Source: Candidatus Latescibacterota bacterium
GTDB lineage: Bacteria > Latescibacterota > UBA2968 > UBA8231
Assembly: GCA_965208105.1 (NCBI GenBank)
Contig: OZ242318.1
Span: forward strand, 3,776,001-3,840,000
Direction of reading: 5' to 3'
Length of the DNA: 64,000 nt
A program made the translations under genes and the position numbers. Numbering within the stretch: the stretch's first letter is position 1; the number at the start of each line of letters is the position of its first letter. The notes below the pieces were generated by a model. It was not told the origin of the DNA, ran no database searches, and saw only the letters and a program-made list of their open reading frames with translations. Shown here one piece after another: positions 17,499-19,662 of the stretch.

Positions 17499-19277
17499 TC
17501 AAGAACTGTCTCGATGTAAACGGATCCCTAAATGCAGCTCCCGCAACTGCTCGGGAGACACCTCGCCCGGGGCTCCCATGAGCAGGTCCTGGCCGTTCTG
17601 GTTCATCGGGAAGGCGATCACCTCCCGGATGTTGGGTTCGTCGGATAGCAGCATGAGGATGCGGTCGATGCCGGGGGCGATGCCGCCGTGGGGCGGAGCG
17701 CCGTAGCGCAGGGCGCGGATCATGCCCCCGAACCGGCGCTCCACTTCTTTCCGCGAATACCCGGCTATCTCGAACGCCTTGTACATGATGTCCGGTCTGT
17801 GGTTGCGGATGGCGCCGCTCGACAGCTCGAGGCCATTGCAGACGATGTCGTACTGACATGCCTTGATCTCCAGCGGCAGCCGGGTCTCCAGTGCAGCCAT
17901 GCCGCCCCGGGGCATGGAGAACGGGTTGTGGGAGAAGGCGACGCGGGCGCGTTTTTCGTCCCATTCGTACATGGGGAAATCCACGACCCAGCAGAACTCG
18001 TAGCGGCCCTCCCGCCGCAGGCCGAGCCGGTCCGCCAGGTGCAGGCGCAATCTTCCCGCCAGGAGGGCTGCCTCGTCTAACCGCCCGGCGATGAAGAAGA
18101 TGGCCGAACCGGGAGCGGCTGCGCACTTGTCGATGATGCGCTCGCGGCTGCTTCGCTCCAGGGCCGCGGCGATGGGACCTGAGGCGCCCTGCGCCCCGTT
18201 GACGAGGTAAGCCAGACCCTGGCCTCCCGCTTCTTTGACGAACGCCTCGAGGCTGTCGTAGAACGAACGCGGCCGCTCCTCCATTTCGGGGACGCACAGG
18301 GCGCGGACGGCCCCTCCTGTTGCCACCGACTCCCTGAACAGCCTGAACGAAGAGTCCGCGAAGACCCCGGAGAGGTCCTGGATTTCGAGCCCGAAGCGCA
18401 GGTCCGGTTTGTCCGTGCCGAAGCGCAGCATGGCCTCGGCGTGGGAGATACGCGGAAACGGCGGCGCGGTCACTTCCCAGCCGCTGAACTCCCGGAAGAG
18501 GCTGGAAAAGAGCTCCTCGATCACGGCGAAGACGTCCTCCTGCTTGACGAAGGCCATCTCCAGGTCGAGCTGGTAGAATTCGCCGGGGGAGCGGTCGGCG
18601 CGGGCGTCCTCGTCGCGGAAGCAGGGCGCGATCTGGAAGTAGCGGTCGAAGCCGGAAACCATCAACATCTGCTTGAACTGCTGCGGCGCCTGCGGCAGGG
18701 CGTAGAAGCGGCCGGGGTAGCTCCGGCTCGGCACCAGGTAGTCGCGCGCGCCCTCGGGGGAGCTGCTGGTGAGGATGGGGGTCTGGAACTCTGCGAAGCC
18801 CATCTCGGTCAAGCGCCGCCTGATACTGGCGATCACCTCCGACCTGAGCTGGATGCGCCGGTGCAGCCCGGCCCGGCGCAGGTCGAGGAAGCGATAGGAC
18901 AAGCGGATGCTCTCCCCCACCTCCGACTCATCCGCCACGGGAAAAGGAAGGGGATCGGCCGCCGAGAGCACCTCCAATCCGCGGACGGCTATTTCGATCT
19001 CTCCGGTATTCATCGCCCTGTTGATGGTCTCGGGCGTCCGCTCGCGAACCTCGCCATCGACGCGGACCACGGACTCCCGGGTCACCTTTGCCGCGGCTGC
19101 CGCCGAGTCGTTATCCGGCGCGACCACCAGTTGGGTGATGCCGTAGTGGTCGCGCAGGTCCAGGAACAGTACGCCCCCGTGGTCCCTCTTGCGGTGTATC
19201 CAGCCGCTCAGGCGAATGGTCTGGCCTGCGTGGCGCTCGCGCAGCTCGCCGCAGGTGTGGGTGCGATAGGGGTGCAT
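17499..19277 (-). CDS. aspS: Aspartate--tRNA(Asp/Asn) ligase, probably non-discriminating
   Basis: [52 protein letters not shown]. Confidence 0.97.
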
Positions 19278-19305
19278 GGCAGCCTCCAGGTTTCGGTTGT
19301 ACATG

Positions 19306-19343
19306 AAAAAACCCGCCGTCGGCGCGGGGCTCGACAGCGGGTT
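19306..19343 (-). terminator. Attenuator terminator 2 (proximal to aspS)
   Basis: AACCCGCUGUCG-loop-CGACGGCGGGUU followed by a U tract. Confidence 0.85.
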
Positions 19344-19363
19344 GGGGTGAGGGTGCATTCTGA

Positions 19364-19456
19364 TCACGGCCAACGCCATCGAGCCCGGATGGCGGGGTTA
19401 TTGTTGCTGTCGCTATTGGAAAAGGCGTGTGCCGCGTGCTTGTGCCGTGATGTCAT
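19364..19456 (-). CDS. Asn-rich leader peptide 2, [30 protein letters not shown]
   Basis: GGAG RBS at 19465-19468; NNN at codons 18-20; overlaps the antiterminator segment. Confidence 0.75.
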
Positions 19457-19468
19457 TTCAAAATCTCC

Positions 19469-19509
19469 AAAAACAAAAACCCGCCGCGATGCGTGTTCGC
19501 GACGGGTTT
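19469..19509 (-). terminator. Attenuator terminator 1
   Basis: AAACCCGUCGCGA-loop-UCGCGGCGGGUUU followed by UUGUUUUU. Confidence 0.85.
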
Positions 19510-19539
19510 GGGATTTTCAGATTCGCTCGGAGTCAGTCG

Positions 19540-19626
19540 TCAGAACACGCGCAGTGGGGCCAGCGGATTATTATTGCCGGAATTGGCCTGGTTGTTGCAG
19601 GTGCGGTCTTTCTGACGGGTAAGCAT
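19540..19626 (-). CDS. Asn-rich leader peptide 1, MLTRQKDRTCNNQANSGNNNPLAPLRVF
   Basis: 6 Asn of 28 aa with NNN at codons 18-20; begins 8 nt after a -10 box. Confidence 0.75.
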   Translation of the reverse strand: MLTRQKDRTCNNQANSGNNNPLAPLRVF

Positions 19627-19634
19627 GATGGACA

Positions 19635-19662
19635 AAGATAGCGCCCCGCCGAAATCTGTCAA
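19635..19662 (-). promoter_or_regulatory. Promoter of the aspS leader
   Basis: TTGACA-16bp-TATCTT(TG) on the minus strand. Confidence 0.65.

Follow-up and report, generated by a model that had tools for sequence, protein, structure and literature searches.

The window analysed here, a 64,000-nt stretch of contig OZ242318.1 (assembly GCA_965208105.1) from a Candidatus Latescibacterota bacterium, carries on its minus strand an aspS gene for an aspartyl-tRNA synthetase (AspRS), preceded by two short leader open reading frames (ORFs) that are each followed by an intrinsic terminator. The gene is the second of two AspRS paralogs in this genome; we refer to it as aspS2 and to its product as AspRS2. 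The leader element is real, conserved, and specific to this paralog. It probably functions as a serial pair of ribosome-mediated attenuators, in which both units would sense the supply of Asn-tRNA(Asn), unit 2 would also be exposed to Asp-tRNA(Asp), and the pair would control the expression of a second AspRS devoted to making asparagine on tRNA.

Anatomy of the aspS2 leader and its occurrence in relatives

Coordinates refer to the minus strand of the window unless stated otherwise. A preliminary description of this DNA, made from the letters alone, had proposed two serial Asn-rich leader-peptide attenuator units in front of aspS, each with a segment complementary to the 5' arm of its terminator. 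This anatomy is borne out, and the complementary segments lie at 19550..19538 (unit 1) and 19386..19374 (unit 2). In the order promoter, ORF1, terminator 1, Shine-Dalgarno sequence, ORF2, terminator 2, and aspS2, the leader contains the following parts:

19635..19662, minus strand: sigma-70-type promoter from a promoter-site scan (TTGACA 19662..19657, 16-nt spacer, TATCTT 19640..19635)
19540..19626, minus strand: leader ORF1 of unit 1, 28 codons plus TGA, peptide MLTRQKDRTCNNQANSGNNNPLAPLRVF, kept in 23 loci
19610..19617, minus strand: region 1 of unit 1, the predicted anti-antiterminator, pairing with 19545..19538 in the minimum free energy (MFE) fold of the untranslated RNA
19567..19575, minus strand: regulatory run of unit 1, AAT AAT AAT (codons 18-20), followed by Pro codon CCG (19566..19564)
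19538..19550, minus strand: region 2 of unit 1, comprising the final ORF1 codons, the stop codon and following bases, and forming the antiterminator (12 pairs) with 19504..19491, the 5' arm and loop of terminator 1
19469..19506, minus strand: terminator 1, stem-loop 19506..19480, then T5-G-T5 (19479..19469)
19465..19468, minus strand: GGAG, the Shine-Dalgarno sequence of ORF2, immediately 3' of the T-run of terminator 1
19364..19456, minus strand: leader ORF2 of unit 2, 30 codons plus TGA, kept in 14 loci
19388..19394, minus strand: region 1 of unit 2, predicted by folding to pair with 19380..19374 in the untranslated RNA
19374..19386, minus strand: region 2 of unit 2, predicted 13-bp antiterminator with 19339..19327
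19306..19341, minus strand: terminator 2, stem-loop 19341..19312, then T6 (19311..19306)
17499..19287, minus strand: aspS2, with Shine-Dalgarno sequence GGAGG (19287..19283) and a coding sequence for 592 amino acids (19277..17499)

The promoter site is the sole one within 18800..20300, against a shuffle mean of 0.3, and the ATG of ORF1 lies 8 nt 3' of its -10 hexamer. Including promoter and terminator, unit 1 spans about 150 nt. Asn codons occupy positions 11, 12, 15, 18, 19, and 20 of ORF1, and the regulatory stretch of ORF2 reads N14-S-D-S-N18-N19-N20 (19417..19397) before a Pro codon (19396..19394). The N-N-N-P motif thereby falls on codons 18-21 of both ORFs, as had been pointed out in the preliminary description. 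This register is true of the window, but it is a coincidence of this genome: the unit 1 ORF of most orthologs has 21-24 codons, and the 22-codon forms carry the run at codons 11-14.

The genome itself is a single contig of 4.85 Mb (93.9% complete). A scan of both strands for ORFs of at most 45 codons that contain three or more Asn codons in a row and have a strong terminator no more than 140 nt away returned the ORF2 locus as the only match; ORF1 is absent from the output because the scan chose an upstream in-frame start. No Rfam family, leader families and T-box included, reaches its gathering score in the leader region, where the best sub-threshold match is to CrfA (22.9 bits versus a cut-off of 38) and is driven by the terminator. 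In the whole window, the sole match at gathering score is a single tRNA gene (30999..31073, plus strand). On the far side of the leader promoter, a terminator-like hairpin of the plus strand (19750..19768) separates it from a GHL10-like gene (19833..21560, minus strand). Directly 3' of aspS2 are two minus-strand ORFs (16178..17467, 429 amino acids; 14734..16548, 604 amino acids) with no Pfam match. They seem to have promoter-like sequence of their own, which suggests that aspS2 is monocistronic.

To find the leader elsewhere, a DNA pattern comprising the end of ORF1 and terminator 1 was searched in species-representative genomes. It occurs at 30 places, 22 of them with a leader ORF (consensus about MMTRQNDRTQNNNNPLAPLRVF); 21 of these 22 reach an aspS start, and all 21 precede an AspRS2 ortholog. 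The eight pattern matches without a leader ORF (L131, L134, L139, L146, L150, L151, L155, L157) were discarded as chance. Together with a genome search of the relatives, the pattern yielded 32 candidate loci, and leaving out L022 and L138 (without an aspS start) and four duplicates gave 26 distinct orthologous upstream regions. Both units are present in 14 of these, unit 1 only in 10, and the remaining two (L024, L025) have a different form in which the Asn-rich stretch belongs to a lysS-like gene. The expectation that Asn-rich upstream ORFs are conserved in front of related aspS genes is therefore well founded, and all leader ORFs in the 26 regions are trailed by a GC-rich hairpin and a T-run. 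The distances from the run to the ORF end and to region 2 are kept, despite a 6-codon difference in ORF length between loci, and region 2 always contains the stop codon.

The association is specific to AspRS2. A run of three Asn codons, (AAY)3, occurs within 600 nt upstream of 8 of 13 AspRS2 orthologs versus 2 of 76 outgroup AspRS loci, and a crude check for a GC-rich segment plus T-run detected no terminator-like site within 600 nt at either of the latter two. No comparable leader is present in the nine outgroup upstream regions inspected. A metagenome scan returned 80 loci, of which eight were inspected; just three loci exceed 65% identity, and the scan added no diversity for covariation. 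An 18-nt motif of unit 2, scanned against genome contigs, gave at least 119 GC-rich, unrelated matches.

Two variants of the leader deserve mention. At L021 (genome G030), an in-frame TAG breaks the unit 1 ORF just before its conserved end, with the terminator of that unit and unit 2 intact; unit 1 of this locus may be a decaying first gate. At L024, L025, and L158, the Asn/Asp-rich stretch (e.g. DNNRDNNNQGNNN) is the in-frame C-terminal tail of an upstream lysS-like class II synthetase ORF. This tail region lies about -518..-86 from the aspS2 ATG at L024 and L025, with the terminator and then aspS2 downstream, and the same form recurs at L158, a locus of the metagenome scan. We rejected the lysS-tail form as a switch: in all ribosome-mask states modelled for the three loci (see below), the terminator is kept and no antiterminator appears.

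Tandem and single forms are interspersed on the AspRS2 tree (five changes of the tandem label, at least four of them forced), and unit 2 of the deep-branching locus L027 aligns with the unit 2 of the crown group. Given both observations, an ancestral tandem state with repeated loss of unit 2 appears to be the simpler reading. In L019, which belongs to the same genus, unit 1 is joined directly to the sequence that follows terminator 2 in the window, and contigs of close relatives from DNA run X4 join 19293 or 19282 to 19475, omitting unit 2. A junction of this kind, between terminator 1 and the region 3' of terminator 2, is expected of a deletion between similar terminators. Only in these terminators do the two units resemble each other (the score is reached by 2, 4, and 10 of 500 shuffles), and they are therefore probably not a recent duplication.

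Regulatory codons and alternative pairings

Asparagine accounts for 20.9% of the residues in the unit 1 peptides (117/560) and 14.3% in the unit 2 peptides (59/412), compared with 2.4% in six-frame ORFs of at least 300 amino acids from the same genome, which corresponds to a 6-9x enrichment. Aspartate, at 4.3% and 5.8%, is not above its genome level of 5.7%. The run of unit 1 consists of 3-4 consecutive Asn codons with no Asp inside. In unit 2, nearly every locus has a run in which Asp codons are interspersed with Asn codons, most often NNDDNNP or NNNDNNP, and NDNDNNP also occurs. The two gates are thus not equivalent, and the earlier idea of two serial Asn gates needs to be amended: two units are present, but the second one combines Asp with Asn in nearly all orthologs. 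A Pro codon follows the unit 1 run in all 20 closer loci (CCG in 16, CCT in 2, CCA in 2) and the unit 2 run in 13 of 14 loci. The Asn runs keep their amino acid while AAT and AAC interchange.

Signals for expression accompany both ORFs. A -35/-10 pair is found in 22 of the 23 unit 1 loci, where 8-11 nt separate its -10 element from an in-frame start ATG (the first or an adjacent one), and GGAG is present upstream of ORF2 in 12 of the 14 unit 2 loci. From these sequence signals we infer that both leader ORFs are translated, ORF1 via leaderless initiation.

In the proposed mechanism, region 2 at the ORF end would pair alternatively with region 1, located upstream, or with region 3, the 5' arm of the terminator. 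In an untranslated leader, the 1:2 hairpin and the terminator would both form. A ribosome that reaches the stop codon would cover region 2, and again the terminator would form. A ribosome stalled on the Asn run (on Asn and Asp codons in unit 2) would cover region 1 and leave region 2 free ahead of it, and this free region 2 could capture region 3 before the 3' arm of the terminator is made, such that polymerase reads on. Transcripts would reach aspS2 only with both gates open, i.e. when Asn-tRNA(Asn) is scarce.

We examined the pairings in two alignments, A1 (23 unit 1 sequences) and A2 (14 unit 2 sequences). When folded freely, the window's leader adopts an MFE structure (-113.1 kcal/mol, z = -3.6) in which each unit forms the 1:2 hairpin and the terminator. 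In unit 1, 96.4% of the cells are paired for the 2:3 helix and 93.5% for 1:2; the corresponding values in unit 2 are 97.8% for 2:3 and 95.9% for the inner 1:2 helix. Sliding the partner by 1-3 columns as a control reduces the paired fraction to 10-54%.

Ribosome positions were modelled by a mask with its 3' edge 13 nt past the first A-site base, and the terminator was scored as sequestered when at least 60% of its 5' arm was engaged in a transcript ending before the 3' arm. Stalling the ribosome at the first, middle, or last regulatory codon sequesters this arm in 22, 22, and 23 of the 23 unit 1 sequences, respectively, and in 14/14 unit 2 sequences at each of the three positions. The figures fall to 0/23 and 0/14 when the ribosome sits on the stop codon. 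The equilibrium folds of the full-length unit 2 lose the terminator in 12, 12, and 11 of 14 sequences (first, middle, and last codon), and a ribosome placed at the stop codon leaves the terminator intact in every full-length equilibrium fold. The alternative pairings hence fit the ribosome-stalling control suggested in the preliminary description, and stalling and readthrough at the leader are what these models would predict. The sequence features that mark an attenuator are found: a short ORF with clustered cognate codons, an intrinsic terminator between ORF and gene and, in silico, an antiterminator that uses the 3' end of the ORF and is exclusive with the terminator, as well as termination with the ribosome at the stop codon or with an untranslated leader.

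AspRS2 and the asparagine pathway

The preliminary description had expected asnS to be absent, which does not hold, and aspS2 is not the genome's sole AspRS gene. Two bacterial-type AspRS genes are present, the housekeeping copy (752 bits) and the regulated copy in the window (620 bits), and they are 44% identical to each other. Each paralog either shows the anticodon-binding, class II, and GAD domains or has an equivalent family match. AspRS2 is of the bacterial type (tRNA_anti-codon, tRNA-synt_2, and GAD domains) with an intact class II core (NF001750 match, 802 bits). The genome also has asnS (477 bits, over the cut-off) and glnS (707 bits). The expected GatCAB is found in the form of gatA (626 bits) and gatB (552 bits); its presence rests on these two genes, as gatC was not searched for. 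The genome search gave no asnB match over the cut-off and no asnA. Since AsnRS, GlnRS, and GatCAB are present and no asparagine synthetase is found, AspRS2 together with GatCAB would constitute the de novo route to asparagine, which would be made on tRNA(Asn). The leader would then provide feedback from a biosynthetic end product, as in the trp and his systems, and not simple autoregulation of a synthetase. A non-discriminating activity of AspRS2 would be in keeping with this set of genes. The tRNA substrates agree with such a route: tRNA-Asn has a U1-A72 pair and tRNA-Asp has G1-C72. Passages of PMC4206432 name the U1-A72 pair as a requirement of bacterial GatCAB.

An AspRS2-type gene (61-100% identity) is present in 11 of 61 relatives, all of them in the window's own family, from which 37 genomes were sampled; AspRS2 fragments occur in four further genomes. 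Genomes with an AspRS match also, or solely, carry the housekeeping type (42-46%). The partial AspRS2-type matches in G018, G004, G014, and G027 have 52-82% identity, one with an internal TAG and one in two pieces; pseudogenization or breaks in the assembly could account for them. The nearest sequences from outside the clade reach 57-62% identity and are mostly alphaproteobacterial, with some from the PVC-group, Fibrobacterota, and Spirochaetota. In a quick IQ-TREE tree of 47 rows (SH-aLRT support only, midpoint root; L149 dropped by the length filter), the housekeeping enzymes fall into a single clade (support 100) and the 25 AspRS2 rows into a second one (support 100), which is nested among the outgroup sequences. 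By sequence, AspRS2 thus groups with alphaproteobacterial-type AspRS. Five named alphaproteobacterial genomes that encode outgroup enzymes of this kind were searched for asnS, with no match over the cut-off (0/5); their AspRS must presumably also serve tRNA(Asn), which would be in line with a putative charging of tRNA(Asn) by AspRS2.

Near-identical public loci are titled Candidatus Latescibacterota, and a few Gemmatimonadota. The labels are inconsistent: L143, L145, L147, and L152 are titled Gemmatimonadota or Gemmatimonadaceae, and both their leader and their AspRS2 differ little from those of metagenome-assembled genomes titled Latescibacterota. L143 duplicates a locus whose genome is assigned to the window's own family.

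Competing readings and related systems

Several observations weigh against an asparagine-sensing attenuator pair. With respect to the enzyme, the His of R(K/R)RDHGG, which we take to be a marker of relaxed AspRS specificity and which the preliminary description had read as the sign of a non-discriminating enzyme, is present in both paralogs; it is not diagnostic and cannot tell which of the two is non-discriminating. The closest solved structure is an enzyme annotated for tRNA(Asp), and the structure search could not tell the discriminating type from the non-discriminating one. Among the 11 relatives with AspRS2, seven score over the cut-off for TIGR01536, the exceptions being G000, G030, G032, and G035. 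AspRS2 as sole asparagine route would accordingly fit this genome and three more but not the clade as a whole, and the complementarity between AspRS2 and asparagine synthetase, which we looked for across the 61 relatives, is not clean. Presence or absence of TIGR01536 is not decisive here, as the model also covers amidotransferases that do not act on asparagine. No recognisable leader precedes the AspRS2-like metagenome genes L159 (66%) and L160 (67%).

At the level of the leader, an SD-like (Shine-Dalgarno) motif precedes ORF1 in 0/23 unit 1 loci; together with the ATG close to the -10, this predicts that ORF1 is leaderless or nearly so. There is no third-position excess of changes (extra states at codon positions 1/2/3 are 8/8/11 in unit 1 and 8/4/6 in unit 2). 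Covariation is weak: each antiterminator has a single compensatory pair (UA to CG in L023, GC to AU in L027), a count matched by 22/500 shuffles for unit 1 and 83/500 for unit 2, and the 1:2 helix of either unit has no compensatory change. The expectation of covarying stems was hence confirmed in part: pairing is kept in 93-98% of cells, with just this one compensatory pair for each antiterminator. Given that the sequences are close relatives and that the structures were taken from the window's own sequence, the pairing counts indicate conserved pairing potential and are not proof of structure. At full-length equilibrium, 8, 14, and 1 of the 23 unit 1 sequences no longer fold the terminator (first, middle, and last codon). 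Equilibrium thus favours the terminator in many sequences and the model needs kinetic trapping, on which classical attenuators likewise depend. The terminator of the divergent L026 is without a GAACAC partner, and unit 2 of both L021 and L027 retains the terminator in the equilibrium MFE. Contigs of relatives from RNA-library run X20 cover units 1 and 2 and none covers 19186..19309; as contigs, they are uninformative about transcription, transcript ends, and attenuation, and we draw nothing from this gap.

The absence of a codon-position signature, the missing Shine-Dalgarno sequence of ORF1, and the weak covariation, together with the sRNA-like size of unit 1 (about 150 nt, where sRNA stands for small RNA), are what one would expect if the promoter at 19662 simply fed constitutive terminators, insulators or sRNA 3' ends, and the ORFs were untranslated and constrained at the RNA level only. 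We regard this as quite unlikely, given that two constitutive terminators in this position would cut off an intact, conserved gene from its dedicated promoter and thereby silence it. An RNA-level constraint also sits poorly with Asn identity kept through AAT/AAC swaps, a Pro codon written in three synonyms, a run-to-region 2 spacing that is kept despite the difference in ORF length, a stop codon always placed in region 2, and the high conservation of both alternative pairings. Synthetase genes are often under T-box control or autoregulation, and a translation-independent switch could be imagined here too, responding in a T-box-like manner to uncharged tRNA(Asn) or to binding of AspRS2, as in thrS-type autoregulation. 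This seems highly improbable: the region matches no Rfam family, T-box included, at gathering score, the units are small (about 150 nt), no specifier-loop or T-box-like core is seen in alignments A1 and A2, and the conserved parts are the start codon, the Asn run, the stop inside region 2, and the terminator.

More closely related to a leader-peptide attenuator is the view that the leader is translated and reads a signal other than Asn-tRNA(Asn), be it Asp-tRNA(Asp), general translation capacity, or slow decoding of Asn-Asn-Pro, in which case aspS2 would track aspartate supply or ribosome performance. The mixed Asp and Asn codons of unit 2, the Pro codon after the run in 20/20 closer unit 1 loci and 13/14 unit 2 loci, and the fact that AspRS also charges tRNA(Asp) speak for it. 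However, unit 1, which is the first gate and in 10 loci the sole one, has a pure Asn run; the leader peptides are enriched in Asn and not in Asp; and the housekeeping AspRS already serves tRNA(Asp). We therefore consider this explanation unlikely and favour Asn-tRNA(Asn) as the principal signal of the attenuator pair. A more elaborate version of this preferred reading, which we put forward tentatively, holds that the leader is an ancestral two-gate sensor, in which a leaderless gate 1 would read Asn and gate 2 Asn plus Asp, i.e. the tRNAs charged by a non-discriminating AspRS, with the two gates multiplying into a tight off-state. Such tightness might be of use because AspRS2 would make mischarged Asp-tRNA(Asn), which is potentially harmful when GatCAB capacity limits. 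Two gates in series might also sharpen the response.

Classical leader-peptide attenuators control the trp, his, leu, thr, phe, and ilv operons of Proteobacteria. The aspS2 leader shares with them a short ORF with cognate codons, a Rho-independent terminator, an exclusive antiterminator, the 1:2 pairing, and a stop codon whose occupancy masks region 2. Unlike these systems, it would sense asparagine, it matches no Rfam leader family, its ORF1 is apparently leaderless, it comprises two non-identical serial units, and its target is a synthetase paralog rather than a biosynthetic operon. A synthetase gene under leader-peptide attenuation is known from E. coli pheST, where the pheM leader carries codons for the synthetase's own amino acid. 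Similar to pheST, an aminoacyl-tRNA synthetase gene would be the target of attenuation here; in contrast to it, the Asn codons stand for what two enzymes would make in succession (AspRS2, then GatCAB), and the genome has an AsnRS besides. In Clostridium acetobutylicum, an Asn T-box reportedly controls the tRNA-dependent amidation genes, as is said to have been described by Saad et al. in 2012 and 2013. The goal would be the same, namely, in a genome that has more than one route to Asn-tRNA(Asn), to raise the indirect one whenever charging of this tRNA runs low. Unlike the Clostridium T-box, an RNA that binds tRNA, the sensor here would be the translating ribosome, in line with the lack of a T-box match. 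To our knowledge, control of the tRNA-dependent route in bacteria with both Asn-tRNA(Asn) routes is otherwise undescribed.

According to passages of PMC4206432, Thermus and Deinococcus make asparagine on tRNA via a second AspRS and GatCAB, and a second AspRS is rare in bacteria and of the archaeal type in the Thermus and Deinococcus phyla (PMC4206432). The genome studied here resembles the situation presented in these passages, i.e. AsnRS, GlnRS, GatCAB, two AspRS, no AsnA or AsnB, and a tRNA-Asn with U1-A72; it differs in that its second AspRS is bacterial-type with a GAD domain. The same passages make no mention of leader-peptide control of the second AspRS. For two leader ORFs in one transcript, the Salmonella mgtCBR leader offers a precedent: excerpts of PMC3641672 present two short ORFs whose translation is anticipated to affect stem-loops and transcription into the coding region. 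The likeness, seen from these excerpts, is at the level of architecture, with two leader ORFs that each have their own alternative structure (tandem in 14 of the 26 regions studied here). In the aspS2 leader, each unit is a full cassette with its own terminator, and both would read Asn codons, unit 2 also Asp codons. For aspS of Shewanella, a generic 'tRNA synthetase leader' has been predicted, with Asn not mentioned (PMC2659441).

A full-text literature search found no description of an Asn-codon attenuator or of a leader peptide before aspS or gatCAB, in agreement with the preliminary description, which knew of none. Should the two-gate sensor prove true, no attenuator that senses asparagine would have been described before it, nor any leader-peptide attenuators arranged in series on a synthetase gene. 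Because tandem leaders and single-unit leaders (10 loci, plus the DNA contigs joined across unit 2) both occur in nature, the effect of the second attenuator could be measured directly. Our analysis also documents a bacterial-type second AspRS outside Deinococcus-Thermus, and the conserved element in front of its gene suggests that the ribosome itself might serve as the sensor for the tRNA-dependent asparagine route.

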